Part shown: piece by piece, positions 27,933 to 51,475 of the stretch
Layout of the letters: every line of letters begins with the position of its first letter
How positions within the stretch are numbered: position 1 is the first letter of the stretch
Source of the DNA: a virus
DNA length: 64,000 bases
Strand: one strand, 5' to 3'
IMG/VR virus record: IMGVR_UViG_3300042924_004713
Span: 64,001 to 128,000 of that record
Notes under the pieces: model-generated
The model's input: the letters and a program-made list of their open reading frames with translations, nothing else
Told to the model about the DNA's origin: nothing
Databases searched by the model: none
Translations under genes and position numbers: made by a program

Positions 27933-28586
27933 ATGCCAAACCCCGACTTTGGTATGTGGAAAGACTATCAACAGCTGGCCAAGATCAAGTCTGGCGGCGC
28001 AAGAGTAGCGGATAGGCAGTTCTGGGCTGTTGGTTGTAGTATCACACATGGCGTGGGTGTGGCTACCGAACAAACCTGGAAACACTTGGTCAGTAACACA
28101 CTTGCCCTGCCCTATACAGATCTAAGTGCTTCTGGTAGCAGCGTATTATGGCAAAGCGATCAAATCTGTCAGAGTCAAATACAATCTGGCGATTTGGTTC
28201 TTTGGGCTATCACAGTTCCTCCGAGACTGCCTGTGATTCGCAATCAAGATCTATTTCATCTTACGCCCGGTGAATATCATCATGATCCACAGATAAATCA
28301 GGAGTTTCCAATTGACTTGCTCACCCATCCCACTCTAGTGTATCATAACATACAAGCAGTTCGCCGTGCAGAAAATATTTGTAAACTGGTTGGTGCAAGG
28401 TTGATTGTGCAAAGTGTGTTGTATGATTTTGATAATGCTCGCGATCTATATGGTGTGCGTGATTACTGTGCATCCTGTTCTAGCCCAGACCAATGGCAAG
28501 ATCTTGGAACCGATAGCATGCATCCAGGTCCCAAACAACATGAAATTTTTGCCAAGACTTTTTTAACTTTAATAGATCCAAATTGA
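27933..28586 (+). CDS. SGNH/GDSL-like hydrolase
   Basis: GCSITHG and D-x-x-HP motifs. Confidence 0.65.
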   Translation: MPNPDFGMWKDYQQLAKIKSGGARVADRQFWAVGCSITHGVGVATEQTWKHLVSNTLALPYTDLSASGSSVLWQSDQICQSQIQSGDLVLWAITVPPRLPVIRNQDLFHLTPGEYHHDPQINQEFPIDLLTHPTLVYHNIQAVRRAENICKLVGARLIVQSVLYDFDNARDLYGVRDYCASCSSPDQWQDLGTDSMHPGPKQHEIFAKTFLTLIDPN

Positions 28587-28828
28587 AACTGACTTTCCAT
28601 ACATTTACACTAGGCGATGTATCAGACGTAGAAATCTATGCTGGTGCGGCCATACATGAATGGCAGAATACTGCCCATGGACAATGGGTCATGGAAAACG
28701 CACAAGATCTTGTATGGACCACTCTACACGATCCTCAATCATTTGGACACAAAGTTCGTATCCTTGGTAAACTAAACGATCCTCGTAAAGTAACTGAATA
28801 CTATCTAAAATGGCCCGAAAAATCATAG
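28583..28828 (+). CDS. hypothetical protein
   Basis: TTG start overlapping the upstream stop; YYLKW C-terminus. Confidence 0.65.
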   Translation: MKLTFHTFTLGDVSDVEIYAGAAIHEWQNTAHGQWVMENAQDLVWTTLHDPQSFGHKVRILGKLNDPRKVTEYYLKWPEKS

Positions 28829-29436
28829 TTGTATCAGCCCACCCGGATGACCTTGAAATAGGCTGCGCAGGTTCTCTGCGTCGCTGGCAGCAGGAAGGCG
28901 CAGAAATTGTCAGTATTATCACAGTGCGCCCCAGTGTTGAAGACAATCGTCGACGTACAAAAGAAATGGTATGGCGTGAACTCAATGCCAGTTACGACAT
29001 CAGTGGTTGGCAGTGTTTGGTTATGAACACTGACTTGCATGCCAATGGGCGTCCTAATCTTGTATGTGACAATGTCACAATGACTGCACTTGGAAATTTT
29101 ATATCAACATGTGATCTTGCTATCTTACCAAGTCCAGAAGACAGTCATCAAGATCATAGAAACACCTACCACTTGGCGTTGCCTTTGTTACGCAACCGAG
29201 CCAAGGAAATCTGGACCATGAGTCATTGGCCTTACAATGCTTGGCATGATTCTAGACCGCGTATCACTGTAGGAATAAGTCAACAATGGGACTTTAAGCA
29301 GACTCTGCTGGAGTGTTATAGCAGTTACCTAGATACAGACGATATTGAAAGTATTCGCAGAGACAACATGGCAGCTGGTGTCAAACATGGATTTAGATAC
29401 GCAGAAACATTTGACCTAGTGAGCCGGCATGAATAA
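28810..29436 (+). CDS. PIG-L/LmbE family N-deacetylase
   Basis: AHPDDLE and HQDH motifs. Confidence 0.88.
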   Translation: MARKIIVVSAHPDDLEIGCAGSLRRWQQEGAEIVSIITVRPSVEDNRRRTKEMVWRELNASYDISGWQCLVMNTDLHANGRPNLVCDNVTMTALGNFISTCDLAILPSPEDSHQDHRNTYHLALPLLRNRAKEIWTMSHWPYNAWHDSRPRITVGISQQWDFKQTLLECYSSYLDTDDIESIRRDNMAAGVKHGFRYAETFDLVSRHE

Positions 29437-30472
29437 AATCACACTGTTTCAAAATCAACGTAATTGGCAACAAATACGCAATCAGGTATTTGATCTAGTG
29501 GATCAAGACAGTGCTACCGGCCAGGCACAGAATACAAAATTAGTGATCAAACTTGAACAGCGTCTAGCAGAACAGTATGATAGAAGATATTGTGTTACCA
29601 CTGCTAGTTGCACAGACGCATTGATAATTGCATTGACATGTCTGAACCTGCCTCCTCGCAGTGTGGTAGCGGTTTCTAACTATACATTTGTGGCCACTGC
29701 TCATGCAATCTCCCGAGCAGGATACACAGTCAAACCAGTGGATGTTATGTCAAACTATTGTATTGATGCCGACCAAATACCACAAGAAGCCAAGGCTGTG
29801 GTTGTTGCGGACATGTTTGGCAACATGAGCGATTGGAGCCGGCTGCAAAAACTCAACATTCCTATCATCAATGACGCGGCTCAGAGCATGGAAAGTTGGC
29901 ATGGTGCATACAGTGCCAGCTTTGGCGATATCAGTTGTGTGAGTTTTAGTCCTAGTAAACCCATATCCAGTTGGGGTAGCGGTGGTGCGCTATTCACTGA
30001 TGACATTGATGTGGCTATCAAAGCCAAATCACTTAGACTGCACGGTAGATACAACAAACAACACACTTCGCATCACGCAGGTATGAATTCGATGTTGAGT
30101 GGATTTGAAGCAGCCTGCATCTGGGCTGCATTAGACAGATCAGAGCAGTGGCGTGATAGGCGTCAACAGATTGCCGAGCAGTTGATTAGCAGTGCAAAAC
30201 TACCCACAGCCACTGACCCAGCTATCATGAAACATGGTTATCAAAAACTTGTGTTTCAAAGTTTTGATCGCGACGGCTATCTACAGCATCTAAGTGATCA
30301 TGGTATCGCTACTGCCATACACTATAACAATTTAGTAAACGACGAACCGTTGTATCATAGTAGTATGATGTTGCCACAGAGTTCACAGTTAAAAGAAATA
30401 TCTTTTACAGTTCCCAATCAACATTCATTAACTGATGAAGAAGTTGAGCAAATTGCAAAGGCATTAAAATGA
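29429..30472 (+). CDS. DegT/DnrJ/EryC1/StrS sugar aminotransferase
   Basis: DAAQS, SFSPSKP, GGAL motifs. Confidence 0.9.
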   Translation: MNKITLFQNQRNWQQIRNQVFDLVDQDSATGQAQNTKLVIKLEQRLAEQYDRRYCVTTASCTDALIIALTCLNLPPRSVVAVSNYTFVATAHAISRAGYTVKPVDVMSNYCIDADQIPQEAKAVVVADMFGNMSDWSRLQKLNIPIINDAAQSMESWHGAYSASFGDISCVSFSPSKPISSWGSGGALFTDDIDVAIKAKSLRLHGRYNKQHTSHHAGMNSMLSGFEAACIWAALDRSEQWRDRRQQIAEQLISSAKLPTATDPAIMKHGYQKLVFQSFDRDGYLQHLSDHGIATAIHYNNLVNDEPLYHSSMMLPQSSQLKEISFTVPNQHSLTDEEVEQIAKALK

Positions 30473-31434
30473 AAATACTTGTACTTGGGGGTCATGGTTT
30501 CATAGGACACCATATCACAAAAATGTTAATTAATCAAGGACATGACGTACATGTTGTTGATTGTCATCATGACTATGGTGAATATCCCAAGTGGGAATTT
30601 GATTCTGTAATGAATCAACGAGTAGATTTCATAGGTGATCATGCTATATGGTTTGGTGATGTAACCAATGCAGATTTCATGAATCGTGTGTTCATGGAAG
30701 TGCAGCCCGAACGTGTGATAGACTTGGCTACCTATCCCAATGCCAAGATGGTCAAGAAGAATGTAGTTGATGCCACAGTGAACATGATTGCTGCTACTGC
30801 TCTTGCTCTTGAACTTTGTGTGCGTTACAAAGTCAACAGATTCGTTTTGGCCAGCAGTTCCATGGTGTACGGAGATTTCAACAAGTTTGATGGACAGCCC
30901 AACGAAGAGTCCTTCTGTGATCCTCTCACACTCTATGGCAGTTATAAACTTCAAACAGAACGCATGTGCAAAATATGGCACAAAGAATATGGCTTGAATT
31001 ACACTATTCTCAGGCCCAGCGCATTGTACGGACCACGAGACATGGTAGTGCGAGTGATATCAAAAATGACCGTGTCAGCAATGACTGATCGTGTAATTGA
31101 AGTTCACGGTGCAGACAACCGCCTGGATTTTAGTTATGTTACTGATGTGGCTGCTGCGTTTGTCACAGCAGCTCTACACGATGATGCTGTGAATCAGATC
31201 TATAATTGTACTCGCGGACGTGGACGTACTATAGGTGAAGCCGCAGAAATCATTCAAAGCAGAATTCTAAGTCGTATTGAATACAAACCAGCCGACGACT
31301 TTTATCCTAACCGGGACACTCTAGATAGTTCCAAACTTACCAAGCTAGGCTGGCAACCAAAGGTTGACATCGAGCAAGGTATTGAAAACTATCTTGATTG
31401 GTTTCTTGAGCAAAAATACATATCAAGATTCTAA
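30469..31434 (+). CDS. NAD-dependent epimerase/dehydratase
   Basis: GGHGFIG, SSSMVYG, YGSYK. Confidence 0.9.
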   Translation: MKILVLGGHGFIGHHITKMLINQGHDVHVVDCHHDYGEYPKWEFDSVMNQRVDFIGDHAIWFGDVTNADFMNRVFMEVQPERVIDLATYPNAKMVKKNVVDATVNMIAATALALELCVRYKVNRFVLASSSMVYGDFNKFDGQPNEESFCDPLTLYGSYKLQTERMCKIWHKEYGLNYTILRPSALYGPRDMVVRVISKMTVSAMTDRVIEVHGADNRLDFSYVTDVAAAFVTAALHDDAVNQIYNCTRGRGRTIGEAAEIIQSRILSRIEYKPADDFYPNRDTLDSSKLTKLGWQPKVDIEQGIENYLDWFLEQKYISRF

Positions 31435-33030
31435 CCAGAGCTCGCGGCCATATTTGGCACGATAGTAATCTTGACACCATTGCCAATCAAAGCTGAGCTT
31501 GAGCATTTCTAGATCGCCATTCACGCTTTGATAATAGTCAACACCGTCTTGGGCACCTTGTAAACAGTATTCTGCGTTTTGTCCTTGAGCCTTGGTGCAC
31601 CATACTTCTAGTCTGTGTTCAATTTCAATGTCTGCTCCAAGATCCACTTCACGTCTGAGTTTCATGGTTTCTCTAAAAGCACTACGCCAAGTGATCCACG
31701 GATCAGTGTTAAAGCGAGATATACTGGCAACAATTGGCACCACTGTGTGAGCAGCACTAAGTGTAAAATCTAGTCCAGGCACAGTGTCCAACACCAACTG
31801 ACGATTGTACAAATTAATGTTCATGGCACCGTATTCAAGGCCATTGAGAGGATTACGACTATGAAAGATGTAGTGCTTGGGCTGTTGCATTCTATCAGGT
31901 TGAAAGTCAAAGGCAAATTCAGGCAACACTTCTGTCTTGGCAAACACTGCAAAGAACCAAGGAGTTGTGCTTGACCTAGCTGCTGCTTTGTATGCAGCTT
32001 CCCTTCCAGTTACACCTTCACTGCGTCGGGCACGTGGACAGAGTTTCACAAGAGTCTGCCAATTTTCTTCGGCCATGGGCTCACCATTGCTGATAAACAC
32101 CACGTCCTGTGGTTGATCAATCACACGATCCTGATAGGTTTTATTGATATATGGATAGTCATACAACTGCGTTTTGATGTAAGGAATAGAACGTTGAGGT
32201 ACCAGCACGCTGGATGCGCCTTTACTGAGAGGTGTGATGGTTTGACTCTGTTCTCTCCAAAGACTCACAGTGGGTATGTCCACCTGATCAATATTCACAC
32301 AGGTAAACAATTCAATAGGTGCAGAAAATTCATGCTGTTTTACGGACTGCACATGACTGTCTTGTTGATGCCAATTCACAGGCACATGATGTCTTGGCAC
32401 TGATATATCAGACACAAAGTTTACTGGAGCCCAGTCTAATAGTTCTGCTGTGGCTAGATTTTTTTTGGCCATGGCAACATCTAGATAAAAAGTGTCACCA
32501 AACTTTTGTTCATCGCTAGCAAACACATGTATCATGTTATCTTGCCATGGCTCAGGATGCCAACTAAAGTCAAAGTTCTTGTAATCACAAACACTGCTAA
32601 CTATCCAGAGTTTTGATTGAGTTGCTGTGTTACAGATTCGTCTGAGTGTGTCTAGGTAGCTGTTAGCGAATCTTACTTGTTTTGAATATTCAACAGAAAC
32701 AGAGTTATTGTTGCCGTGATTTATCATGATCACGTCACTCATGGGCTTGCGTGGTACAACTTGGGAATGATAATTAGTGTCGTTGAAACCTTGTTTGGGC
32801 ACCAAGCAGGTACCACCATCAACCTGCCATTGGCTGGGCCACACATGACGTTGATCTTTTTCCCATGGTACTGGTTCCCAAAGAAAATCAAAACCAGTGT
32901 AGTCCGATAAGTAGTTCACTACCCAGAAAAATCTTGTGTTACACATTTCCTGTGCATGTTGTAAATCTCGAGCAGCTCGCTCGTGAGCAAACAAATTAGG
33001 TTTTTTGTCAAAATAAAATACATCAAACAT
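31423..33030 (-). CDS. glycosyltransferase-like repeat protein
   Basis: Repeated FDFxWxP...HV modules; C-terminal DVVFISNGE...WRSAFRE domain paralogous to 48449-49345. Confidence 0.6.
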   Translation of the reverse strand: MFDVFYFDKKPNLFAHERAARDLQHAQEMCNTRFFWVVNYLSDYTGFDFLWEPVPWEKDQRHVWPSQWQVDGGTCLVPKQGFNDTNYHSQVVPRKPMSDVIMINHGNNNSVSVEYSKQVRFANSYLDTLRRICNTATQSKLWIVSSVCDYKNFDFSWHPEPWQDNMIHVFASDEQKFGDTFYLDVAMAKKNLATAELLDWAPVNFVSDISVPRHHVPVNWHQQDSHVQSVKQHEFSAPIELFTCVNIDQVDIPTVSLWREQSQTITPLSKGASSVLVPQRSIPYIKTQLYDYPYINKTYQDRVIDQPQDVVFISNGEPMAEENWQTLVKLCPRARRSEGVTGREAAYKAAARSSTTPWFFAVFAKTEVLPEFAFDFQPDRMQQPKHYIFHSRNPLNGLEYGAMNINLYNRQLVLDTVPGLDFTLSAAHTVVPIVASISRFNTDPWITWRSAFRETMKLRREVDLGADIEIEHRLEVWCTKAQGQNAEYCLQGAQDGVDYYQSVNGDLEMLKLSFDWQWCQDYYRAKYGRELWLES

Positions 33031-34126
33031 GATTAGAATTGAAGAGATATATGCCAATACGTTTTGGTCCTATCTCCGTCGGAACGTTCCACGAACAAGG
33101 CTTTGGTTTCTAGATCCACCGGGGCATGTAGGAGTTGAATATTTAAGGAGTTATGCATCATCCGGTGGAGAATTAAATTATCTGCTGGCTTTTGATCAAG
33201 AACCTCTTGAAATGTCAAGAATTATGCCTATAGCCAATCATATCTGTGATTTTGAAAACAACACGCTCACGGGACCAGGAGTAGGCGGGATCATCACCAG
33301 CGAGTACAACAGTAACACAGTTCGTAGACTTTGTCAACTACTTGGTTGGCAAAGTTTCTACTATTTTTTCAACGGCTGGGCAGCACTGGATTGGTTCAGA
33401 GGTTACAATAGAACTTTTGTGGTTGAACCTTTTGATAGCAGAAATATTACCAAAACATTCTTGTCGCCTAATCGTATCGTTGCAGGTGAAAGATCTCATA
33501 GGCTAGTGCTGATGTATCATATTCTAAAACACAAACTCGCTCATAACCACATCAGTTTTCCGTTGATATGCCCTGCTGAAAACGTTTCAGTGTATACTGC
33601 GTCAGAAAAACTTTTATCAGTATATCCAGACATTCATGCTGTGTTTGAATCCGCTGGCTTGCCTCTGGCTTTTGATGAGCCCGCAGTTCCAAGTTATGCA
33701 AGTGCCAGATTAGACCTACACGAGCAGGCCAGTGAAAGTCTAGTTTATGTTATAAACGAAACAGTAGGCACTGGACAAAGGCAACACCTCACAGAAAAAA
33801 CCTTCAAACCAATTTGTATGCAAATGCCATTTGTAATGGCTAGTACTGCACACAGTTTGAGTTATCTTCGTCAGTATGGATTTGAAACATTCAGCAGTGT
33901 GTGGAACGAAAGTTACGATCAAGAAACTAACGATCTAAAACGCATGCAACTTGTGGCTGATTTATTAGCATGGTTAGAACACAGTGATCATACCAAGGTG
34001 TTTGCACAGTGCCGTGATATAGTCCTACACAATTACAATCATTTTTACAACGGTGGCTTTGAAGCTATCTTGTGGCAAGAACTTGAGATGATGCTTGATG
34101 ATATACGCTCTAAACTTTTTGTTTGA
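33029..34126 (+). CDS. TEK-x-x-KPI family glycosyltransferase-like protein (paralog 1)
   Basis: ET...LTEKTFKPI...PF...LRQYGFETF...ESYD. Confidence 0.6.
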   Translation: MIRIEEIYANTFWSYLRRNVPRTRLWFLDPPGHVGVEYLRSYASSGGELNYLLAFDQEPLEMSRIMPIANHICDFENNTLTGPGVGGIITSEYNSNTVRRLCQLLGWQSFYYFFNGWAALDWFRGYNRTFVVEPFDSRNITKTFLSPNRIVAGERSHRLVLMYHILKHKLAHNHISFPLICPAENVSVYTASEKLLSVYPDIHAVFESAGLPLAFDEPAVPSYASARLDLHEQASESLVYVINETVGTGQRQHLTEKTFKPICMQMPFVMASTAHSLSYLRQYGFETFSSVWNESYDQETNDLKRMQLVADLLAWLEHSDHTKVFAQCRDIVLHNYNHFYNGGFEAILWQELEMMLDDIRSKLFV

Positions 34127-35288
34127 TCGTTGGCAAGACAAAAAACCCTATCCTAACCTGATGCCCATGGGCGACCTAAGCAATGGCTACGGAGAGTTGG
34201 GTCAACAGTTTCCCTTTGTGGTCCCGCTACGATTGTTTTATTACAGTGCTGATCATGGTTTTCCTCTGTATACATTTGATCTTGAGTCTGAGTTACCACA
34301 GCCTTGTTTCTATCCCATAGCTCTGGGCTTTTTTAACTTTGACATTGACTACTTTGATCTAGTTCCAACTAGAGTAATGAATCTGGTTAAAAACCGTAGT
34401 GTTAGAATACTTTTTTATTACCACGAAGGAGACAATCCTCAGCAGGAGCAAATTAGACTTGATGAATTATGCAGCACACATAACCTTGATCCGGACTGCT
34501 ATCGATTTGTGAGTGGCAACACTGCGGCAAAGTCAATTGATCGCTTTGTTTACTTTCCTGATCATGAGTTGTTTTATTGGAGAGCCAACAAAAAACAACC
34601 AGCACTAACATGGAATGATGCACCTAGATTAAAAAACTCCACTGCGTTGAGTAGAATACACAAATGGTGGCGAGCTACTGTAATGGCAGATCTGCATCGC
34701 AGAGGTTATCTTGATCAAAGTTTTTGGAGCTACAATCTGCTGGATGTAAGTGATCAGCCTACTGACAATCCTATTGAGGTTGCCTGGTTCCCCGGACTAG
34801 AAAGCTATATTGAAAATTTTTTAGCCAACGCTCCATATCGCTGCGATGATCTCACGGCAGAACAACACAACCGCCATCACACTTTGGTACCAGGACATTT
34901 TCAAGAAAGTTACTTTAACATTGTGTTAGAAACCATGTTTGATGCAGATCAAAGTGGAGGAACTTTTTTAACAGAAAAAACTTTCAAACCTATCAAACAT
35001 GCACAGCCATTTGTGCTTTTTGCTCCTAAAAACAGTTTGGTCACACTGCGTGAACTTGGATATCGTACCTACGATCATGCTATCATGAACTACTATGACT
35101 CTGTGGAAGACAATACACAGAGATATCTACATGCACAGGCTGCTGTGCATGTTTTGATGTCACAGGACCTTTTTAGATGGTCTCAACAGTGCAAACAGGA
35201 TGCTGTGTTTAACCAACAGCACTTTTTGTCATCAAAATTTGACAGATTAAATAACCTTGCTAAATTACTGTATGACTCCATTAGTTAA
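34098..35288 (+). CDS. TEK-x-x-KPI family glycosyltransferase-like protein (paralog 2)
   Basis: IVLET...FLTEKTFKPI...LGYRTY. Confidence 0.6.
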   Translation: MIYALNFLFDRWQDKKPYPNLMPMGDLSNGYGELGQQFPFVVPLRLFYYSADHGFPLYTFDLESELPQPCFYPIALGFFNFDIDYFDLVPTRVMNLVKNRSVRILFYYHEGDNPQQEQIRLDELCSTHNLDPDCYRFVSGNTAAKSIDRFVYFPDHELFYWRANKKQPALTWNDAPRLKNSTALSRIHKWWRATVMADLHRRGYLDQSFWSYNLLDVSDQPTDNPIEVAWFPGLESYIENFLANAPYRCDDLTAEQHNRHHTLVPGHFQESYFNIVLETMFDADQSGGTFLTEKTFKPIKHAQPFVLFAPKNSLVTLRELGYRTYDHAIMNYYDSVEDNTQRYLHAQAAVHVLMSQDLFRWSQQCKQDAVFNQQHFLSSKFDRLNNLAKLLYDSIS

Positions 35289-37790: not shown

Positions 37791-37918
37791 TCTGGTTTTA
37801 ACCAACTAAGCATGCCCCAATACGCTACGACCACCATGAGAAAACCTATCCAGTCGCCTAGACGTATTGAAGCCAGGATCGCAAAGTAAAAATACAGGTT
37901 AAGGAAGAAAAAGTTCAT
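37787..37918 (-). CDS. small membrane protein (43 aa, MNFFFLNLYFYF...)
   Basis: Manual translation; ATGA-coupled on both sides. Confidence 0.6.
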   Translation of the reverse strand: MNFFFLNLYFYFAILASIRLGDWIGFLMVVVAYWGMLSWLKPE

Positions 37919-42858: not shown

Positions 42859-44179
42859 ACCATTGTCCTATTTCTTTAAAAGTTTCTGCAAAGTTTTTTC
42901 CTCGTCTTGTATCATACTGTTGATAGAAACGTTTGAAATCTTGCCTTAATACAGGCAAATCAAAAGCTTCGCTGTGTGGAGTTTTAACTACGTCAAGGTA
43001 ATCAATCAAACGTTGCACATGATTGCGTTCATGTGGCTGTAGGAAAACGTGACGATCAAATGTATTTAACCATGACTGCAACTGATCGCGGTACTTGGTG
43101 CGTAGATAATCAGGTAGTACCAAGGGACTTTGAAAACTTGGAAAACGCAGTATGTTTAGTGTGAAATTAGGAAAGTCTGCGCCGTATTGACTTTTCCAAG
43201 TCAACATCAGTGTAAGGAACTCTGGCAAACTTTCTAAACACAATGCATTGACTGTACACATCATGTGCAGTCCACGTAGTTGATCATGATGATTTTGAAT
43301 AATATGTTCTACTTTAGTAACCCAATCATTCCATTCAAGACCGTCACGAATGTATTCAGCGTGTGCGCCCATGCTTTCGTTACTGGTATAAAGATCTATA
43401 GGAGCATCAATACTAGCAAACAGCCTATCTATGTCAACCTGACTGCCTAGGTTGCTGTTGATTGCCAGTCTGGTCTTGCTCCGACCTTTATTGTGTTTGA
43501 ACCAATCTAATAACTTCCAGGTATACCCAGACATCAAAGGCTCACCGCCGGTGATACGTAGTTCGTCAAGTGTTAGGTGTAGGTCAGATTCCCACCAGGA
43601 GAAAAAGGCGTCCACGTAAGGATTGCTTTCACCGAATCTATAAAGTTGAGCGCCAGCGTGATCATGAGTGAAATGATTGCGACCGTCGCTTGCCAGTCCC
43701 ACATAGGGCCCATTTTGATGTATGTCGCGTACCCATGTGCTGCTAAAGGCGGGATTGCAATAACTACAAGCAAATTGACAAGTACGATCAAAACTAATCT
43801 CCAGAGTTCGGAGATTGATATCTTCCGTGATTGGTGCGTGCTGTGCATAGGTTATGTCCTCTATGGTGTAAATTTTGGACTTGTATACACGATCACTTAC
43901 AGCATCGCGTCCCATGTCCTCTATTTTCCAACAATATTCGCATCCTGCTGGACGTTGGCCACGTTGCATCTTCTCGCGGTCTTGTTTTTTCTGTGGCGTA
44001 TTGTGCAGTAACTTAGGGTTAGCACGGACATTATCAGTGTCCACTAAATGAGCAGGCGGGTGGTGACATGATGTGGTCATGCCTGAACCCAGCCAAATGG
44101 TTGCATTGTACCACTTTGCTGCACAAAAACTTTGAGAAATAGGATCAAGTATCCTATTCTTGAATTCTAAATCATTCAT
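42845..44179 (-). CDS. N-terminal twitch radical SAM protein
   Basis: CAAKW...SCHHPP...CEYCW followed by CQFACSYC and GGEP. Confidence 0.88.
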   Translation of the reverse strand: MNDLEFKNRILDPISQSFCAAKWYNATIWLGSGMTTSCHHPPAHLVDTDNVRANPKLLHNTPQKKQDREKMQRGQRPAGCEYCWKIEDMGRDAVSDRVYKSKIYTIEDITYAQHAPITEDINLRTLEISFDRTCQFACSYCNPAFSSTWVRDIHQNGPYVGLASDGRNHFTHDHAGAQLYRFGESNPYVDAFFSWWESDLHLTLDELRITGGEPLMSGYTWKLLDWFKHNKGRSKTRLAINSNLGSQVDIDRLFASIDAPIDLYTSNESMGAHAEYIRDGLEWNDWVTKVEHIIQNHHDQLRGLHMMCTVNALCLESLPEFLTLMLTWKSQYGADFPNFTLNILRFPSFQSPLVLPDYLRTKYRDQLQSWLNTFDRHVFLQPHERNHVQRLIDYLDVVKTPHSEAFDLPVLRQDFKRFYQQYDTRRGKNFAETFKEIGQWYDQI

Positions 44180-45333
44180 CTTGTCAGTTTGTTGTCTCTT
44201 ATAAACTGTATAAATCTTTCAGGAAACTCTTGTCGAACTTTTTCTCGCATGTTCCATAGGTGTTTTTGATTATACTCGCAAACAGGTCTTGCTGCTGCTA
44301 AAAAGTCTTTGAGATTCGCTGTACTCTTGCAAAGATCTACAACAATATCTCTTATTCGTGTGATTCGATCCATGTCATTGTCAATAGTGTCAAATGTTTC
44401 ATCAATGATATGATCAAATGTGCGAAAACCCAAGCTACGCATATCTCTGTAATAACCAACATTGGCGACCGCTATCCATGGGTGCCCAATGGCAATTGGT
44501 TTCCAAATTTTTTCAGTTCTAAAACTATATGGATAGCTAAACACAGTTTCAGTTACCAGACTAAAGTAAGTATCAATATAAGGCTTAGGCTCTATATAAA
44601 TCTCGCCCCACTCTAATTTGTTGTTAAAATCAAAAAGTTGATCTTTTACAAAACCAGGTACTAGATCAGATTTTAAATTTTTACGATACCTGTCAACTTC
44701 ATATTGCTCTGGTAGCAATTGAACTGGTATTGTTTCTGCTACTAAATCTACTCCATTATGAATAAGTTTAAGGTCTTGTGTTCTCCCTGCGAATGTATCC
44801 AAGTTAGTCCACAAGCTTTGATCCAACAGCCCGGATAATTTAAAACTTTGCAACAAATATTTTCTATGAGGTCTACTCCGTCCATTCAAAAACAAAAATT
44901 TATAAGGTTTGTCTGTTGTATTGTAAATGTCATCGGTGTACTCGTACACATTTTTATTTTTTGGCACGTCAAAAATTTGAGGCAAAAAACTTTCATATTG
45001 CAAATGATTAAATTGCGATTCTATATCGCCGCCACCTATTAACAGCATCCGACCTTGAACATTGTATTCTTTCAGCCCCAACTCAGTGACTTGCCATTTA
45101 AGTGTATCTGCGCCTTCAGTGGGATTACTGACTATGATAAAGGACTTACCGCTTTCAATTGTTTCTCTAACTTTGTCAATGTTATGATTTGTCTGTGCTC
45201 GCCCAAGTACATAGATCGCATTTTCAATCAGTGTCTCTTTGCCAAAATCCCAGAATGTTCCATCAGTATACTCTTTGATCAAATCTGTAATCTCTGAGTA
45301 AATATCAACAAATAGTTTTTTTCTACCAATCAT
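44176..45333 (-). CDS. TEK-x-x-KPI family glycosyltransferase-like protein (paralog 3)
   Basis: FLFLNGRSRPHR, TET...FRTEKIWKPI. Confidence 0.6.
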   Translation of the reverse strand: MIGRKKLFVDIYSEITDLIKEYTDGTFWDFGKETLIENAIYVLGRAQTNHNIDKVRETIESGKSFIIVSNPTEGADTLKWQVTELGLKEYNVQGRMLLIGGGDIESQFNHLQYESFLPQIFDVPKNKNVYEYTDDIYNTTDKPYKFLFLNGRSRPHRKYLLQSFKLSGLLDQSLWTNLDTFAGRTQDLKLIHNGVDLVAETIPVQLLPEQYEVDRYRKNLKSDLVPGFVKDQLFDFNNKLEWGEIYIEPKPYIDTYFSLVTETVFSYPYSFRTEKIWKPIAIGHPWIAVANVGYYRDMRSLGFRTFDHIIDETFDTIDNDMDRITRIRDIVVDLCKSTANLKDFLAAARPVCEYNQKHLWNMREKVRQEFPERFIQFIRDNKLTR

Positions 45334-45396
45334 TTGGTGTGCCTTTTGTATTCCTGCCAGAACATCATCTCTGGATTCGTATTCACGGTTTGAATT

Positions 45397-46539
45397 CTAA
45401 ATCATCCATTGATTGTTGTTTAGTAATTTGAAAAACTTATCAGGAAAGTCTTTGTTGATCTGTTCCCTAAGGTGTATCATGTGATCTTGATTATATTTAC
45501 AGATGTCTCTAGCAGCTTCGAGGAATTCACGCGGTGATTTACAGATATCTATTATAACATTGATCACTCCTCGAAGTCTTGCATGATTATCTTCAATGTT
45601 GTCAAAACTTTCATCTATAATGCCATGAAAGGTTCTAAATCCCATGTTTCGAAGATCACGATTGAATCCGGCATTGGCTACACATACCCAAGGATGCCCA
45701 ATGGCTATTGGTTTCCAGATTTTTTCTGTTCTAAAACTAAAAGGCTTGTCGTGTACTGTTTCGGTTACAATGCTAAAATAGGTATCAACATAGGTATCCA
45801 GATTTAGGTAAATGGCTCCCCATTCTTCATTGAACAGAGTAGGCATAGCATACTTTTGATCACTAAACTGCATGTCAACTCTGTTTTGATAACGTTGCAC
45901 TTCATACTTACTGGGTAATAGTTTGATAGACCTTGGCCTGTTCATCAAATCTATACCATGTTGTTCTAGACACAAAGATCCATCATCAATGAAATTTGGA
46001 TCCAACCAAGTCCATAGTGCTTGATCAAGCAGTCCAAGATAGTCTAACTGTTCAACCATCCACTTGCGATGTGGCCTGGCCCTGCCGTTCAAAAACAAAA
46101 ATTTATATGGCTTATTGATTTTGGTATAGATCTGATCACTGTGTTGTATTACTTCTAAGTTTTCTGGAAAATGATGAACTTTGCTAATAAAATGATCATG
46201 TCTAAGATAATCACAATCAACACGTATGTCACCACCGCTGATCAAAAGTATCTTCTTTGAAAGCAGTAGATCTTCAAAACGCAGTTTGCGTATGATGTAA
46301 TGCAGAGTTTCACTGCCTTCAAACGGATTACTGTATACCACTCGAATGTTGGAATCAACCAACTGTCTGATCAATCTATTGTACTTGGCGAATTGTTTGC
46401 GGCCAAACACATATACCCGGTTGGGTGTTGGTAACACTGTGGCAAAGTCGTGAAATGTTTCTGTTGCCCAAGGACGTAGTAATTCTGTGGTCTCACAGCC
46501 TTCGTCAAGTGATAGATTGAGCGTTGGCATGTGATTCAC
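45397..46539 (-). CDS. TEK-x-x-KPI family glycosyltransferase-like protein (paralog 4)
   Basis: FLFLNGRARPHR, TET...FRTEKIWKPI; close paralog of 44176-45333. Confidence 0.6.
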   Translation of the reverse strand: MNHMPTLNLSLDEGCETTELLRPWATETFHDFATVLPTPNRVYVFGRKQFAKYNRLIRQLVDSNIRVVYSNPFEGSETLHYIIRKLRFEDLLLSKKILLISGGDIRVDCDYLRHDHFISKVHHFPENLEVIQHSDQIYTKINKPYKFLFLNGRARPHRKWMVEQLDYLGLLDQALWTWLDPNFIDDGSLCLEQHGIDLMNRPRSIKLLPSKYEVQRYQNRVDMQFSDQKYAMPTLFNEEWGAIYLNLDTYVDTYFSIVTETVHDKPFSFRTEKIWKPIAIGHPWVCVANAGFNRDLRNMGFRTFHGIIDESFDNIEDNHARLRGVINVIIDICKSPREFLEAARDICKYNQDHMIHLREQINKDFPDKFFKLLNNNQWMI

Positions 46540-47890
46540 ACTCTAACCAAAAGCTGGTCATTTCAGGAAATACCTGTTGAAACGCATTTGAATCATTGAA
46601 CATCCTTCTGCTGTACTCGCTGAAAAATCTGTAGAAGTCAGCTCTAGCCATGGTGATTTCATCTGTGTTTTGTGGCTCACTCATCCAGGCCAAGGCTCGC
46701 TCCATGCGCTGTACTTCATAGTCTTTGAATCCCACAAAACTGTTGTCTTCCATCATGTTATCACGCATAAAGTCAATGGCCTGACGCATTCTGCGTTGAT
46801 AGGATTCAGGTAATATCTGTAAGCTCTGCCAACGAGGATTACGCAACACCGGAGTATCAAACCAAACTTTTTGATAGGTTTTTGAATATCTGGATCTGAG
46901 TTCCAAGATATAATCTAGCAGTGCATCTATGCCTACTATACTCAAGTTGTTCAAGGTCACAATAAAAGTCAGGCTGTTTTTTTCTTGAACATTGTCAAGG
47001 TAACTGTTGACATTGGCCAAGAACTGAGTTGAATGCATGCCACGTCTGATGTATGCTGCCTGTGTCCAGTCTCCTGTGTCAATACTAACATACTGCATGA
47101 AGTGTTCAATCTTGGTCGCACATAGCTTTTTTATATACTCTAGGTACCCTAGAAAAATCTCTGTTGGCACACTGAAATTACTAGTGACATCTATGTGCAA
47201 TTCAGGATGTGGCGATGCCAGTATGTAATCAAAAACCTTGTAGGTGTTTTTGTCTAGTATTGGCTCACCACCAGTCATACGGAAATGACGCAGACGTGGA
47301 TAAAGTTGTGGCCACCACCGCCAAAACGCATCTAGATAAGGATTGTGTTCTCGCACAGGTATAGGTCTTTTGCGTCCTTTGAAGTGCGCAGGATCGTTGT
47401 GAGGTATTCGAGTAGGAAAGGCACCATGCCTCTGCGCATCTTCCATCCAGGTAGAACTAAACTGTGGACTGCAATAGCTACAGGCTAGATTACAAACATT
47501 GCTAAAATTAACTTCAACGTAACTGGGTATTATATCTTCGTCGCCAGACAATGCGTCCAAATCAATCTCAGCCCAGGGTTCGCCAGATCGATAGTGACGA
47601 TCACTAAGTTCGCCAAGATCCTCCATGTTCCAGCAGTACTGACATTCACTAGGTCGCTCATTACGCAGCATGATTTTGCGCTGTGTTTTTTTATAAGGCG
47701 TGTTGTGCAAGGCACTGGGATTGTCAGCCAAAAGCGATACATCTATTTCGTGCAATGGCGGATGGTAACAACTATTGGTCATGCCCGTGGTCAGGTGCAG
47801 ACTTACCTGCTTCCATTTAGCGTAGCAACGTGCAGGACCTAGCTTGTCGCGCATCTCTTCTGCGTTGTTTAGAAAAACACTTTTAGACAT
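46505..47890 (-). CDS. N-terminal twitch radical SAM protein
   Basis: CYAKW...SCYHPP...CQYCW followed by CNLACSYC and GGEP. Confidence 0.88.
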   Translation of the reverse strand: MSKSVFLNNAEEMRDKLGPARCYAKWKQVSLHLTTGMTNSCYHPPLHEIDVSLLADNPSALHNTPYKKTQRKIMLRNERPSECQYCWNMEDLGELSDRHYRSGEPWAEIDLDALSGDEDIIPSYVEVNFSNVCNLACSYCSPQFSSTWMEDAQRHGAFPTRIPHNDPAHFKGRKRPIPVREHNPYLDAFWRWWPQLYPRLRHFRMTGGEPILDKNTYKVFDYILASPHPELHIDVTSNFSVPTEIFLGYLEYIKKLCATKIEHFMQYVSIDTGDWTQAAYIRRGMHSTQFLANVNSYLDNVQEKNSLTFIVTLNNLSIVGIDALLDYILELRSRYSKTYQKVWFDTPVLRNPRWQSLQILPESYQRRMRQAIDFMRDNMMEDNSFVGFKDYEVQRMERALAWMSEPQNTDEITMARADFYRFFSEYSRRMFNDSNAFQQVFPEMTSFWLECESHANAQSIT

Positions 47891-48449
47891 CTAGTTCCTG
47901 TTGTAAAAGATTGTACAAAACCGCAGTGCCTTGCGCAGATAGATGCCCATCAGGCAATCTATGATTGGGAGCAATAAAAGGCATCAATAACCGATGTTGA
48001 GTGTCACGGTTTTCCCACGTAAAGCCCACAGCAATTTTGTTTTGTAAAAAGCTCATTGTGGTGTCAATTAACATGTTGCTTAAATTATCACTGTAGGGAG
48101 GACCAAACACAGTGTAAAAGTATTTGTAAACTTCCTGGCTCGCCGTATCCAGCTGTTGATTGCTGATACCAAGCCCCTGACCGTGCCAACCAGCAAAAAA
48201 ATCTATGTCATGATCTTGATACTTGATACCAAACCTTGATGAATACGTCCATCCTAGAACAAATACATCGTGACCACTGACATTTTGGTACACATCATAA
48301 GCAATGGCCATGTTACTTTTACCAGGACGGGATCCATCGGTGACTGTGTATCCCCCCTGACTAGCAAACATTGACCCTAGACTTTGCTCACGTGGCAATC
48401 CATGACCGTATGTAAGACTACATCCATCAATATACATACGTAGAGACAT
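47883..48449 (-). CDS. SGNH/GDSL-like protein
   Basis: GCSLTYG, GKSN, DGHL; start placed at MSLRMY. Confidence 0.6.
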   Translation of the reverse strand: MSLRMYIDGCSLTYGHGLPREQSLGSMFASQGGYTVTDGSRPGKSNMAIAYDVYQNVSGHDVFVLGWTYSSRFGIKYQDHDIDFFAGWHGQGLGISNQQLDTASQEVYKYFYTVFGPPYSDNLSNMLIDTTMSFLQNKIAVGFTWENRDTQHRLLMPFIAPNHRLPDGHLSAQGTAVLYNLLQQELDV

Positions 48450-49345
48450 TACTCGCGTTCCATAATGCCTTTGTTGTTCCAGTTGGCACGATAATGATGT
48501 TTGAAAAATGCACTGCCCTCGGCGGTTAGTGTGCATATTGGCAAAGACAACTGTGTGTGCAAATCATTACTCACACGACCAGAAACAATGTCTGGATGTG
48601 TATCCTTGATAGTGTCCCAGAGTTTTACTAATTCATCAAAGTCTTGAACTTGTCTATAGTCCCAATTAGTCAGCATGGTCATGTAGGTGCCCATTCTAGA
48701 GCCTGCCATGGCCCACAGCCCATTGTCAACGTCGGCGCCTACATTGTGCCAAATAGTAAGATTATCAAGATTACGCTGTGCCACTCTCTGTTGAAACTCA
48801 CTTAGACTTGGTCTACGTCCGCGATCCAGGCACATCTTTACACCTTCGCGGAACCCAGCACGCCAGGCTTGAAAGTCTGTGGCATTGATATAGGTTGTTG
48901 AGTAACAGTCATGCATGGCCCAATATTGTGGATGGAAACAAAATTCTACAGTGGTTTCATCTGTGCCATCACTGGCTTCATGTGTACGCATGTTCATCAC
49001 ATACTCTTTGGTCCAGCAACTTATACCTCCGTTGCCATACATCAAGCCATTAACATTATTCCTAGCCCGCCAGCGAAATACACAATCAGAGTTAGTGCTA
49101 TCCAATACCAGCTGACTTGAAAAGAAGCTAATATCAGGGATATTATCGCCATCAAGTAACACAAAACGATCAGTGGTCGAAGCCATCGCTGCTGCCTTGT
49201 GGGCGGCGTCTGACCCTTTAATACCATCCACTCGTCTTGCCCAGGGTACCATGTTCCGAACACGTACCCAATTTTCCTCAGCATTTGGTTCATCATAGGT
49301 TAGAAATATACAGTCTAAATCAGCAATATCAACTATCTCAGTCAT
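48449..49345 (-). CDS. glycosyltransferase-like protein (GT-A fold)
   Basis: IFLTYDEP, AHKAAA, LDGDN (DxD), AWRAGFREG. Confidence 0.65.
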   Translation of the reverse strand: MTEIVDIADLDCIFLTYDEPNAEENWVRVRNMVPWARRVDGIKGSDAAHKAAAMASTTDRFVLLDGDNIPDISFFSSQLVLDSTNSDCVFRWRARNNVNGLMYGNGGISCWTKEYVMNMRTHEASDGTDETTVEFCFHPQYWAMHDCYSTTYINATDFQAWRAGFREGVKMCLDRGRRPSLSEFQQRVAQRNLDNLTIWHNVGADVDNGLWAMAGSRMGTYMTMLTNWDYRQVQDFDELVKLWDTIKDTHPDIVSGRVSNDLHTQLSLPICTLTAEGSAFFKHHYRANWNNKGIMERE

Positions 49346-49673
49346 AGTATTTTAAATTCCATTTTTGATGCGGTTCAATGTCAGTGATCACAATCACGTT
49401 GTTAGCATGGCATGCCTGTCCAGCTTCTGCTGGCGCTAGCTTAGAACTAACTGGTGTCTTAATTGGTACCAACTCGCTATTGACCACACGCACACGAGTA
49501 TTAGAACGTTCGTAGGTCTCTCTGTCAATCTCTAAATAGTTACCAGGCCGATCCTCCATGCTATAAAATAGCACCTGCCCGTGATCGTCGTAGTACACTC
49601 GATAGGAAATCTTAGAAACAACTTCCGGTTCAAGATGTTTTTCTACTTCACGCCAAAATTCTAATAGGTCCAT
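49338..49673 (-). CDS. hypothetical protein
   Basis: Overlap-coupled ORF. Confidence 0.7.
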   Translation of the reverse strand: MDLLEFWREVEKHLEPEVVSKISYRVYYDDHGQVLFYSMEDRPGNYLEIDRETYERSNTRVRVVNSELVPIKTPVSSKLAPAEAGQACHANNVIVITDIEPHQKWNLKYYD

Positions 49674-50392
49674 GTTTTTTTATGATAGTGCACCGCACCC
49701 CATTGAGCCACAGTATTGATACGTAAGGGATCCGTTTCCCAAACTAGTTCTTTGGTCCAGTCTGGTGTGTGAGTGCCCAGGATGTGTTGCTTGAAATGCG
49801 AGATTTTGGGAAATGTGGACCAGGGCATTGTGACATTTTCTGGCCCAACGATTTGAGCTGCCATAGCATATACAAAATCAGTACTGGGCTCTGGATCTGC
49901 AAATGCTACTAGTTTTTTGTACTCTTGCCACTGAGTAAAAATCCTGCGACACCAAGTGAAGAAATCATGTGCTAGTTGACTGGCTCTCCAATAGGTGATG
50001 GCATTGTACACATCAGCAAGACGATTGTTGTCAAGAAACTTGCGATAATATCTTGAATTGGCGATGTTGCCATAGAAGTCTCGGCATCCTGTGGAAATAC
50101 AAAGATCACGATGTTGCATGATGTCAAACCAATGCATACATGGACCAGCCATTAACATATCAGCTTCTAGTTTAATGGTCTGGCGATAAGGACTTAGTTT
50201 GTAGGCAAAGTAGTCCAGTGCTTGTCCTTGTAGTTCAGTCTGAGGTAAATCCTGATTGGTTAAAACAGTGACTTCGGCCGAGGGATGATAATACAAAATG
50301 CTTTGAGCAAGCCTACGTGCGCAGGCTTCATAATCAACATCTTGAGTGTTAAATGCGGGAATAACAAATCCACGTTCAGATTTGATTGGCAA
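49661..50392 (-). CDS. GT8-like glycosyltransferase
   Basis: LSPYRQTIKLEAD, HFK, HYH. Confidence 0.6.
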   Translation of the reverse strand: MPIKSERGFVIPAFNTQDVDYEACARRLAQSILYYHPSAEVTVLTNQDLPQTELQGQALDYFAYKLSPYRQTIKLEADMLMAGPCMHWFDIMQHRDLCISTGCRDFYGNIANSRYYRKFLDNNRLADVYNAITYWRASQLAHDFFTWCRRIFTQWQEYKKLVAFADPEPSTDFVYAMAAQIVGPENVTMPWSTFPKISHFKQHILGTHTPDWTKELVWETDPLRINTVAQWGAVHYHKKTWTY

Positions 50393-51170
50393 TTATCTTC
50401 TCCAAATAACTTTTTCCCATGGCGTGAAAATCTTGATTTTTGATTGTGATATATCGTTGGCGTTTTCCGTCTTGCCATTCTAACACAAACTTATCATGAT
50501 CAAAGGTCAACTGATCTTCTGGTAACACACTCACAAGGTTCCAAGGTATATCAGTGGTTTGTAGTGTGTTGCCTGATTCCAATGTCAAAGCAATGCTCAA
50601 AGCATGATCATTTCTAAACGCTGCTCGATTGATACCATAGAGATTTCTATAGTGTGACCAATGCTGCTGTACCATTTGCATGGTATTGAATATGACCTGG
50701 CTCTTGAGACTAGCACGGTAACATATCACAGTGGCCCAATACATCGGCATATGATACTTGCCAAATGTGGTATTGAACTTATCACCTGTTCTGGCATTCA
50801 CAGCATATCTATGACACACAAAATCTTGATCTATAGCCAACAAATCACGCAGTTGATTGCTGTTGACTATGTAATCAACATCCAGCAGTAGTGTTTGATC
50901 AAACGGCGACAACAGTGCAGAATGACTTCGATCATGATTGTGCCAATCAACCACTTGGTCTAGATCATGAAAGTATCTTGAACCCGACTGTGGCTTGCTG
51001 CGATGTATTACCTGATCAAAACAGTGAATTTTGGGATGATCAACACAGTCTGTGACCACTGCCACAGGCAAGTCAAGATAGTGTTTTATACGTTGTGCGT
51101 TCCACGCAGCAATGTTTACATAGTCAACTTGCTGATTGTTGAACGCTACTAGAAGAACACCTTGTGTCAT
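50376..51170 (-). CDS. GT8-like glycosyltransferase
   Basis: LSPFDQTLLLDVD (DxD), FRND, HAMGK. Confidence 0.65.
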   Translation of the reverse strand: MTQGVLLVAFNNQQVDYVNIAAWNAQRIKHYLDLPVAVVTDCVDHPKIHCFDQVIHRSKPQSGSRYFHDLDQVVDWHNHDRSHSALLSPFDQTLLLDVDYIVNSNQLRDLLAIDQDFVCHRYAVNARTGDKFNTTFGKYHMPMYWATVICYRASLKSQVIFNTMQMVQQHWSHYRNLYGINRAAFRNDHALSIALTLESGNTLQTTDIPWNLVSVLPEDQLTFDHDKFVLEWQDGKRQRYITIKNQDFHAMGKSYLEKIIANQI

Positions 51171-51475
51171 CGTTTTTGACCAAGTTCCTGATGTTCCAAC
51201 AACCACGCATTCATGCACTCTTGCCAGCGTTGTGCTGCCATGTTCCAGAGTTCCTTGGTATTGATCTGTACCGGATTATGGTACAAGTCTAAAAGTACAA
51301 CTGGCTTGTCCATTACGCAACAGTTCAAGGTGCTTAACAGTTCGGGTCCAGCACGCCACATACCGCCTGCATGAGCAAACAGCATCTTGGCTTCGTACTT
51401 TTCTCTCAATAATTTTTTAGCCGATTCGTGATCAAATCTTGATCGAGCGTAGGCAACTAGGTCGTTAGAATCCAT
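51167..51475 (-). CDS. hypothetical protein
   Basis: MDSNDL start 6 nt after a TATATT -10-like box. Confidence 0.7.
   Translation of the reverse strand: MDSNDLVAYARSRFDHESAKKLLREKYEAKMLFAHAGGMWRAGPELLSTLNCCVMDKPVVLLDLYHNPVQINTKELWNMAAQRWQECMNAWLLEHQELGQKR

Follow-up and report, generated by a model that had tools for sequence, protein, structure and literature searches.

Here, we analysed a stretch of 64,000 nucleotides (nt) of viral DNA (hereafter the window), which corresponds to bases 64001-128000 of a 166,408-bp viral contig in IMG/VR (IMGVR_UViG_3300042924_004713), with emphasis on an island of sugar-related genes beside the tail-fibre genes. Open reading frames (ORFs) fill this island, delimited beforehand as positions 27933-51475, nearly gap-free. 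They encode five radical S-adenosylmethionine (SAM) enzymes, eight glycosyltransferase (GT)-like proteins and a set of sugar-nucleotide and tailoring enzymes, and no transmembrane-like segment was found in any island protein, all of which are soluble. An earlier sequence-only reading had described an amino-sugar tailoring toolkit here, modelled on aminoglycoside pathways. All of the enzyme classes it named (PIG-L, DegT, NAD epimerase-type short-chain dehydrogenase/reductase (SDR), amidinotransferase and carbamoyltransferase) were recovered by Pfam and PDB profiles; both the inventory and the reading as a tailoring toolkit are supported, whereas the aminoglycoside link is one of analogy and not of membership. 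Megablast of the island against GenBank phages gave no match. Relatives were collected in two IMG/VR scans, which yielded 191 and 73 related stretches, and counts per relative were made over 80 and 72. CheckV estimated the completeness of the contig at ~48% and near-complete relatives measure 332-349 kb, so the genome of this giant phage from a lake is probably around 350 kb.

A plus-strand block (24660-31434) leads from a VWA/metallopeptidase gene through ThyX to the SDR gene. The gene for a 544-amino acid (aa) protein stands alone on the minus strand (31423-33057) between this and a second, short plus-strand block (33029-36300), which contains two GT-B genes and an amidinotransferase gene. 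A long minus-strand block then extends from a 3075-aa gene (63979) down to the carbamoyltransferase gene (36297). Most adjacent genes in this block overlap by 4-35 nt; two gaps are larger than 60 nt and none exceeds 207 nt. The two widest minus-strand gaps contain short open frames, both of them candidates for coding: a frame of ~49 aa that ends in ATGA at the next gene (54568-54751, minus strand), and a frame for a basic 33-aa peptide (37900-38012, minus strand).

The five radical SAM enzymes, all encoded on the minus strand, belong to the N-terminal-twitch family NF033640 (N_Twi_rSAM), whose curated hidden Markov model has a cut-off of 170 bits. Radical SAMs 1 (39055..40365), 2 (40343..41578), 3 (41575..42858), 4 (42845..44179) and 5 (46505..47890) scored 279.7, 336, 405, 281.3 and 291.2 bits, all above this cut-off (E-values 4e-83, 3e-100, 4e-121, 1e-83 and 1e-86, respectively). 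The Pfam SPASM matches lie N-terminal to the radical SAM core matches (residues 13-88 and 132-316 in radical SAM 1). Cysteines C148, C152 and C155 of the CxxxCxxC core are invariant, as are the N-terminal C53, C94 and C97, and C34 is nearly so. Five twitch radical SAM enzymes had been predicted previously, and this count (280-405 bits against NF033640) holds; however, the twitch domain lies at the N-terminus, in contrast to BtrN, where it is C-terminal.

Orthologs of radical SAM 3 with 64-91% identity were present in 191 viral stretches, and a search with this protein returned more than 7,400 protein clusters at an E-value of 1e-10 or better. A homologous-protein search retrieved close phage orthologs only, under uninformative names. 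Many metagenomic orthologs of radical SAM 3 were called at 550-580 aa versus ~427 aa, which may represent either an N-terminal extension or a gene-calling artefact. The near-complete relatives contain 9, 16, 10 and 13 NF033640 copies, many of them outside the island, and no copy exceeded the cut-off in 14 control genomes. In the complete 347-kb relative G002 (a relative of L134), 16 N-terminal-twitch radical SAM genes are scattered over the genome, one of them with an in-frame TAG. In the literature that we searched, no publication dealt with what an N-terminal-twitch radical SAM enzyme catalyses, and there was no characterised NF033640 member.

A conserved 352-aa protein (38013..39071, minus strand) is always encoded between radical SAM 1 and the carbamoyltransferase. 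It had no match in Pfam, PHROG, NCBIfam or PDB profiles, and the ESM Atlas returned nothing usable. A metagenome library contains 678 representative clusters of this protein, with invariant His, His, Asn and Lys residues. In some metagenomic forms of 712-775 aa (P0208, P0214, P0215, P0219, P0222, P0231 and P0254) it is fused behind an unrelated domain of ~400 aa; this N-terminal domain is no radical SAM domain and matches none of the island-derived profiles.

About eight GT-like ORFs had been proposed. Eight were counted here, namely four GT-B, two GT-A and two weakly GT8-like proteins; the GT-B and GT-A folds were recovered by modelling, whereas the last two give only a weak GT8 signal. The four GT-B paralogs form a TEK-motif family. 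Paralogs 1 (365 aa, 33029..34126) and 2 (397 aa, 34095..35288) are encoded on the plus strand, and paralogs 3 (385 aa, 44176..45333) and 4 (380 aa, 45397..46539) on the minus strand. Paralog 4, to which paralog 3 is 41% identical, was modelled by AlphaFold2 (AF2) with a mean confidence (pLDDT) of 93.9, and paralogs 1 and 2, which are part of alignment A1, take their fold from it. Within the family alignment of 44 sequences, R158, E272 and K273 are invariant, the last two in a Thr-Glu-Lys motif; they are candidate counterparts of the donor-binding Arg and the Glu-Lys motif of GT10 enzymes. The model matched many GT-B structures with Z-scores of 11-13.5 over 265-300 residues, the top identity being 13-14%, to a Helicobacter pylori alpha-1,3-fucosyltransferase, and its matches in BFVD included Mimivirus L138 and GT10-type proteins. 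Pfam gave no real match, including none to GT10, for the 44 family members; PDB profile searches with this family and with the protein p298 were empty, and tblastn of a GT-B paralog found no match.

The protein p298 (298 aa; 48449..49345, minus strand) was modelled as a GT-A-fold GT-like protein at a pLDDT of 74, and Foldseek matched the model to RmlT (3.8e-4), SunS and PBCV-1 A64R. It has an invariant DGD motif (D65-G-D67) and a mean column identity of 71% across relatives. The 544-aa protein combines an internally repeated N-terminal domain with a C-terminal p298-like GT-A domain, as its residues 316-506 aligned with the p298 alignment A12 in hhalign (probability 98.2%, E 3e-14); it was found in 72 related loci, and its look-alike clusters in the ESM Atlas are nearly all viral. 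Two further minus-strand genes encode GT-A/GT8-like paralogs of 243 aa (49661..50392) and 280 aa (50376..51218), related to each other by hhalign of the 280-aa protein to alignment A5 (probability 98.9%). The 280-aa protein has an invariant DxD motif (D113 and D115) and a homolog in the Ralstonia phage RsoM2USA.

The sugar-nucleotide module lies on the plus strand. Its first gene encodes a PIG-L/LmbE-family de-N-acetylase (28810..29436; Pfam PF02585, 8e-11), for which the nearest NCBIfam model, BshB1, was matched under its cut-off; this gene is a variable accessory, present in 9 of 72 relatives. Next to it are genes for a DegT-family pyridoxal phosphate-dependent sugar aminotransferase (29429..30472; Pfam, 3e-58) and for the SDR (30469..31434; Pfam Epimerase, 7e-43). 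The nearest NCBIfam models of the DegT protein are the 4-aminotransferases PseC, dTDP-4-amino-4,6-dideoxygalactose transaminase (WecE-like), LegC and DesI, all under their equivalog cut-offs, and at the family level it appears closest to the 4-aminotransferases of nucleoside diphosphate (NDP)-4-keto-6-deoxyhexoses. The SDR had been called an NAD epimerase, which is right for its Pfam family; its closest NCBIfam models, however, are NDP-hexose 4,6-dehydratases (dTDP-glucose 4,6-dehydratase, 8e-36, and LegB). Because the DegT and SDR matches stay under the equivalog cut-offs, it is the family level that is established for both.

The amidinotransferase (347 aa; 35257..36300, plus strand) had no Pfam match and was assigned to the AGAT/StrB1/SxtG family by PDB profiles. 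A profile built from this protein and seven relatives (alignment A4) matched AGAT (3.4e-25), SxtG (1.5e-21), StrB1 (1.6e-20) and HsvA (7e-19), and the similarity to AGAT, SxtG and StrB1 covers the whole domain. C332, which belongs to a GGxxC motif near the C-terminus, is invariant in A4, as are H193 and a number of Asp residues; these are candidates for the catalytic Cys of AGAT and its His and Asp partners. One amidinotransferase had been listed before; the family is confirmed, and a second paralog of this superfamily (355 aa; 23027..24094, minus strand) was found upstream of the VWA gene, outside the island as then delimited. It matched A4 in hhalign (probability 99.9%, E 1e-32), has a C-terminal Cys motif, shares 27% identity with the 347-aa protein and, like it, belongs to phrog_25854.

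The NodU/CmcH/TobZ-type carbamoyltransferase (36297..37805, minus strand) contains both domains of this family above the Pfam cut-offs (Carbam_trans_N, 6e-38, 131.5 bits; Carbam_trans_C, 2e-47, 161.6 bits). It reached 138 bits against the NodU equivalog model, whose cut-off is 1000, and is thus a family member and not NodU itself; it was kept in 60 of 72 and 67 of 80 relatives in the two scans. Two SGNH/GDSL-like hydrolases of 217 aa each, also predicted earlier, are encoded at 27933..28586 (type 1, plus strand) and 47883..48536 (type 2, minus strand). Their joint profile (A11) matched TesA (6.5e-4) and acetyl-xylan esterase (0.07), and their alignment conserves G34, S36, G68 and S70. The GxS and DxxH blocks agree with the prediction: type 1 has the GCS/GDS block I and the DxxHPG block V, and the support for type 2 is weak. 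Both genes are variable accessories, type 1 being present in 8-11 of 72 relatives and type 2 in only 3. Guanidino and carbamoyl groups on the product of the island would follow from the family membership of these transferases only.

The island adjoins tail-fibre genes, as had been stated previously; this was borne out by Pfam and PHROG matches and by a 3075-aa virion structural protein. The latter (54752..63979, minus strand; phrog_10938 'virion structural protein', 1e-134) is encoded at the head of the minus-strand block, and a fragment of it gave one weak, unannotated match in GenBank phages. It is followed by a tail-fibre-like protein of 460 aa (52531..53913, minus strand), which matched Pfam Peptidase_G2 (2e-4) as well as PHROG tail-fibre and virion structural families, and which has a C-terminal intramolecular-chaperone-like domain and tail-fibre-like ends. 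Next comes a fibre-like protein of 322 aa (51549..52517, minus strand), syntenic in relatives, which consists of 21% Thr, 11% Ser and 13% Gly, has no Cys and is a candidate acceptor for a glycan.

A promoter-like motif, TAAATA, occurs twice at 53934..53965 on the minus strand, 21 and 45 nt upstream of the fibre gene, and once at 35247..35254 on the plus strand, ~18 nt ahead of where the amidinotransferase gene probably starts. The T4 late promoter TATAAATA ends in these six bases. The window contains it at 24206, 35247, 53934, 53958 and 54720, and one of these precedes the first ORF of the plus-strand block. There are 56 occurrences in the 166-kb contig, and within 80 nt upstream of ORF starts we counted 27 in sense versus 4 in antisense orientation; this bias suggests that the motif is a phage promoter element. 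The exact T4 late promoter was found once in the window, which is not above chance, and scans for sigma-70-type promoters and terminators remained at chance level. Among relatives, TAAATA is kept before the fibre gene in 10 of 12 and before the amidinotransferase gene in 78 of 96; it precedes radical SAM 4 in 39 of 87, DegT in 15 of 60 and other island genes in at most 8%. Given the motif at the fibre gene and the lack of terminators above chance, the simplest reading is that the minus-strand part of the island would be transcribed together with the fibre gene.

We found the island to be common to more than 190 uncultured phage contigs, with the gene set syntenic in these viral stretches. Their common frame begins with VWA, two small genes, ThyX, a small ORF and the sugar-nucleotide module, continues with the 544-aa protein, two GT-B genes, amidinotransferase, carbamoyltransferase, the 352-aa protein, radical SAMs 1-4, a GT-B gene, radical SAM 5, a variable slot and p298, and ends with two GT-A-like genes that have a small ORF on either side, followed by the fibre genes. 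Within it, the order p298, radical SAM 5, radical SAMs 4-3-2, radical SAM 1, 352-aa protein and carbamoyltransferase is invariable, and every radical SAM paralog has its own orthologs with 50-67% identity. In 55 relatives the span from p298 to the carbamoyltransferase had at least 39 gene orders, with the radical SAM order constant throughout; it holds 5-7 radical SAM genes, 0-4 GT-B genes and 0-6 accessory genes. The sugar-nucleotide module exists in two versions: that of this phage, with PIG-L and close DegT and SDR homologs (9 loci), and one with a distant DegT/SDR pair (about 30% and 36% identity) that lacks PIG-L. The accessory pool amounts to 106 families, including FkbM-type methyltransferases (21 loci), a further radical SAM (18 loci), an AMP-binding enzyme (11 loci) and SAM synthetase (8 loci), besides other methyltransferases, cupins, SDRs, hexapeptide acyltransferases and B12-binding radical SAM enzymes. 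A fixed radical SAM scaffold combined with variable genes is the pattern seen when diversifying pressure acts on a glycan locus whose radical core is conserved.

The SAM synthetase genes inside the island in 8 relatives (L067:15517-16617, plus strand, and 7 others) are full-length, and fit the heavy SAM demand of the radical SAM array. Three small ORFs without family matches are conserved as well: one of 81 aa (28583..28828, plus strand; homolog in 50 of 72 relatives), one of 111 aa (49338..49673, minus strand; 60 of 80) and one directly after the fibre gene (51167..51517, minus strand; 48 of 80), the last of which is possibly a fibre chaperone.

Outside this clade, p298 was found in 1 of 50,697 GenBank phage records, that of the cultured Ralstonia jumbo phage RsoM2USA. 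This phage has a mini-module consisting of a fibre-like N-terminus, two GT-A-like genes, a small gene and p298 (43% identity), then one radical SAM gene of type 4/5 (36% to radical SAM 5, a type thus kept there) and another p298-like gene; a few genes upstream, the phage also encodes an SDR. Proteins around the mini-module were found in RsoM2USA virions by mass spectrometry, and the giant protein of more than 288 kDa encoded directly before it is a virion protein by the same method (PMC8504454). The giant protein occupies the same relative position as the 3075-aa protein, with only a weak local match between the two (E 1e-4). As in our phage, the transferase genes sit inside the structural block and are co-oriented with virion genes. 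The VWA gene of RsoM2USA is ~45 kb away, which indicates that the module travels with the fibre region and not with the ThyX frame.

Freshwater, marine and soil lineages all retain the order fibre gene, GT-A, GT-A, p298 and radical SAM, with identities of 27-43%. Nine contigs filed in a genome collection as bacterial metagenome-assembled genomes (MAGs) carry all or part of the gene set (L156, L157, from a Haliscomenobacter MAG, and L158-L164; bins include Legionellales, TMED and Rickettsiales); as this is a phage gene set, they are probably phage contigs that were binned wrongly. In three contigs of marine origin, the fibre gene, two GT-A-like genes, p298 and radical SAMs 5, 4, 3 and 1/2 follow each other in this order at 27-60% identity.

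Starting from the families, folds, synteny, solubility, promoter-like motif and absent rival-route genes observed here, we propose a pathway in which each reaction is deduced from family membership, and the step order and the acceptor are conjectural too. The dehydratase-like SDR and the DegT aminotransferase would convert a host sugar nucleotide into an NDP-4-amino-4,6-dideoxyhexose. The four GT-A-like and four GT-B-like transferases may assemble an oligosaccharide on a cytoplasmic acceptor, and in this phage the PIG-L deacetylase would expose the amine of a transferred N-acetylglucosamine-type sugar. Guanidino and carbamoyl groups would arise from amines or hydroxyls through the amidinotransferase and the carbamoyltransferase, while esters might be added or removed by the SGNH proteins. 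Sugars would be altered in a set sequence of radical reactions by the five radical SAM enzymes, perhaps with the 352-aa protein; oxidation, epimerisation, deoxygenation and C-C or C-methyl chemistry are candidates for these reactions. The acceptor is most likely the Thr/Ser-rich fibre of the phage or another of its own virion proteins. Attachment to virion proteins had been suggested by the sequence-only reading and is the best-supported target, by the strand and motif shared with the fibre gene, by the solubility of the enzymes, by the lack of lipid-carrier and DNA-base-hydroxymethylation genes and by RsoM2USA, whose glyco-genes alternate with virion genes verified by mass spectrometry, all of which is circumstantial. 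We consider cytoplasmic assembly and tailoring of a glycan to be probable and well supported; the complete proposal, a cytoplasmic pathway that builds a tailored oligosaccharide with virion proteins as its target, is plausible and put forward tentatively.

Could the radical SAM enzymes instead act on the fibre protein itself, introducing crosslinks, epimerised residues or hydroxyl handles at sites that the transferases then glycosylate? Most characterised SPASM/twitch enzymes modify peptides or proteins, the island enzymes show weak matches to peptide maturase models, and their genes lie directly behind the fibre genes. However, thioether chemistry on the fibre-like protein is excluded by its lack of Cys, and the 9-16 family copies are scattered over the genomes of relatives. 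The neighbours of this family elsewhere are glycosyltransferases and not precursor peptides, proteases or peptide exporters. Across 16 bacterial N-terminal-twitch loci (mostly Bdellovibrionota, Bacteroidota and Myxococcota), GT2 is the commonest neighbour other than radical SAM, and DegT, GT1-like and PMT_2 proteins rank after it. Vibrio phages K566 and K567 have four N-terminal-twitch radical SAM genes, and in K566 two GT8 genes and a GT4-like gene lie among them. We therefore regard a protein substrate as quite unlikely.

Modification of the phage DNA with tailored sugars has precedents in the glucosyl-hydroxymethylcytosine of T4 and in TET-linked glycan and carbamoyl modifications; DNA hypermodification clusters are also said to be treated in a preprint by Pyle and colleagues. 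Carbamoyltransferases and glycosyltransferases occur in known clusters of this kind, ThyX adjoins the island, and the GT-B model fits the T4 beta- and alpha-glucosyltransferases about as well as other GT-B enzymes (Z-scores of 11.6-13.1). On the other hand, no ThyA-family hydroxymethylase (PF00303) or C5 DNA methyltransferase (PF00145) was detected in the contig and four 95-100% complete relatives (hereafter the reference set) by searches with positive controls, so that the known routes to a hydroxymethyl-pyrimidine acceptor are missing. TET/JBP (PF12851) gave no match there either, in a search whose control was silent. ThyX makes ordinary deoxythymidine monophosphate, its frame is separately conserved and is unlinked to the module in RsoM2USA, and the island genes lie in the structural region. 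DNA as the target is thus highly improbable.

The aminoglycoside pathways, which inspired the description of the island as a toolkit, are represented by those for butirosin (BtrC, BtrS, BtrN, BtrM and BtrD), streptomycin (StrB1) and tobramycin (TobZ). They include the BtrD deacetylase, the BtrS/StsC aminotransferase, the StrB1 amidinotransferase, the TobZ carbamoyltransferase and the twitch radical SAM enzyme BtrN. The island shares with them the families PIG-L, DegT, amidinotransferase, carbamoyltransferase, GT-B and twitch radical SAM, and its enzymes are all soluble. This raises the alternative of a free product, either aminoglycoside-like or another glycosylated small molecule, which would be produced in the infected cell and serve as an antibiotic against competitors, a signal or an inhibitor of host functions. 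In a listing of three genes, cyanophage S-SCSM2R has a DegT/AHBA-synthase-like aminotransferase, a radical SAM enzyme and an inosamine-type amidinotransferase side by side, labelled 'antibiotic synthesis genes' (PMC12801897). That trio likewise belongs to a T4-like aquatic phage, whereas the island described here spans ~24 kb and is syntenic in hundreds of contigs. The sole hint of cyclitol chemistry comes from a distant relative, whose island has a dehydroquinate (DHQ)-synthase-like sugar-phosphate cyclase (L140:4139-5278, minus strand; Pfam, 7e-37) in a row of six accessory genes.

In the reference set, however, the DHQ-synthase family (PF01761) was not found in a search whose control was positive in 11 genomes, and inositol-phosphate synthase was not searched. 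The lack of this cyclase removes the first committed step of 2-deoxystreptamine-type aminoglycosides. Unlike aminoglycoside pathways, the island has no cyclitol synthase and no resistance or export genes, contains far more transferases and belongs to a phage structural operon; an exporter or self-resistance gene is not evident, since no island protein has a transmembrane segment. Eight transferases whose copy number varies strongly are more in keeping with a glycan chain than with a defined metabolite. The radical SAM enzymes are not of BtrN type, being NF033640 members with the reversed domain order. With both a cyclitol synthase and a BtrN-type enzyme missing, the aminoglycoside comparison stays an analogy, and DegT, SDR, PIG-L and GT proteins are generic sugar-tailoring families. 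A free product is quite improbable; its most specific form, in which cells infected by these jumbo phages, abundant in lakes and oceans, make a free guanidino- and carbamoyl-decorated oligosaccharide of aminoglycoside kind with a core from a fixed five-step radical SAM line, we regard as very unlikely. If it were true, phages would be a large hidden source of antibiotic-like natural products.

A counterpart in both position and content is the 'host recognition cluster' of pelagimyophages, in which GTs, most commonly GT8, and radical SAM cassettes were reported at the annotation level (PMC7029224). Like the island, this cluster of pelagimyophages and cyanomyophages is a hypervariable region in the structural part of T4-like aquatic myophages and comes after a giant structural protein and tail fibres; the N-terminal-twitch family, the fixed radical SAM scaffold and the amidino- and carbamoyltransferases went unrecognised in that account (PMC7029224). 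Zaragoza-Solas et al. read the marine counterpart as a means to modify the host O-chain (PMC7029224), which speaks against virion proteins as the target of the island. Under such an interpretation, the island would alter the O-chain or capsule at the host surface and thereby block superinfection or keep progeny from sticking to debris. The hypervariable gene content resembles O-antigen loci, and GT8-like and GT2-like families are common in lipopolysaccharide synthesis. However, the island proteins lack transmembrane segments, and the minus-strand genes lie behind the promoter-like motif of the fibre gene. In addition, searches of the reference set, with positive controls, found no initiating phosphoglycosyl transferase (Bac_transf, PF02397), WecA/MraY-type enzyme (PF00953) or Wzx (PF01943), which means that the phage has no means of its own to initiate a lipid-linked glycan or to flip it. 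We consider modification of the host surface unlikely.

Returning to the virion as target, virus-encoded virion glycosylation is known from giant viruses and a few mycobacteriophages. The fibril cluster of Mimivirus comprises the R141 dehydratase, the L136 aminotransferase and the L137-L140 transferases, PBCV-1 glycosylates its capsid with A64R among other proteins, and glycosylation of capsid and tail tube in mycobacteriophages was reportedly described by Freeman and colleagues in 2023. By analogy, the island appears to come closest in its mode of action to the clusters for virion glycosylation in Mimivirus, chloroviruses and mycobacteriophages: it shares with the Mimivirus, PBCV-1 and mycobacteriophage systems soluble cytoplasmic transferases without lipid carriers, clade-specific content and a position of the genes in or near structural modules. 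With Mimivirus it also shares a 4,6-dehydratase and DegT aminotransferase module for 4-amino-4,6-dideoxy sugars, and PBCV-1 A64R and Mimivirus L138 are the fold matches of the island GTs in these systems. Unlike in those systems, a glycan on the virion is a prediction here. To our knowledge, none of the three has radical SAM enzymes, an amidinotransferase or a carbamoyltransferase, and we know of no described system that unites transferases with an amidinotransferase, a carbamoyltransferase and a radical SAM array.

Several further points weigh against a tailored glycan on virion proteins. No NF033640 reaction is known, and hence a carbohydrate substrate is deduced from gene neighbourhoods. 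The contig covers only ~48% of the genome, and so the gene absences rest on the relatives. TAAATA also occurs in the transfer RNA and auxiliary-gene region. The sugar-nucleotide module, two GT-B genes and the amidinotransferase gene are on the plus strand, outside the fibre operon, and both the adjacency to the fibre gene and the co-transcription with it could reflect conserved genome order alone. As to the transferases, the p298 model is of moderate confidence only, and the GT assignments of the 243-aa and 280-aa proteins are weak, with matches to the N-terminus of glycogenin only (E 0.18-1); this weak glycogenin/GT8 signal makes them the softest of the eight. The proposed link between glycan and acceptor comes from circumstantial evidence.

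As RsoM2USA is cultured and carries the mini-module, the question is testable at the bench. Should tail fibres carry the product of the island, it could influence how large aquatic phages that rank among the most abundant recognise their hosts and withstand host defences, and new radical carbohydrate chemistry would come to light.

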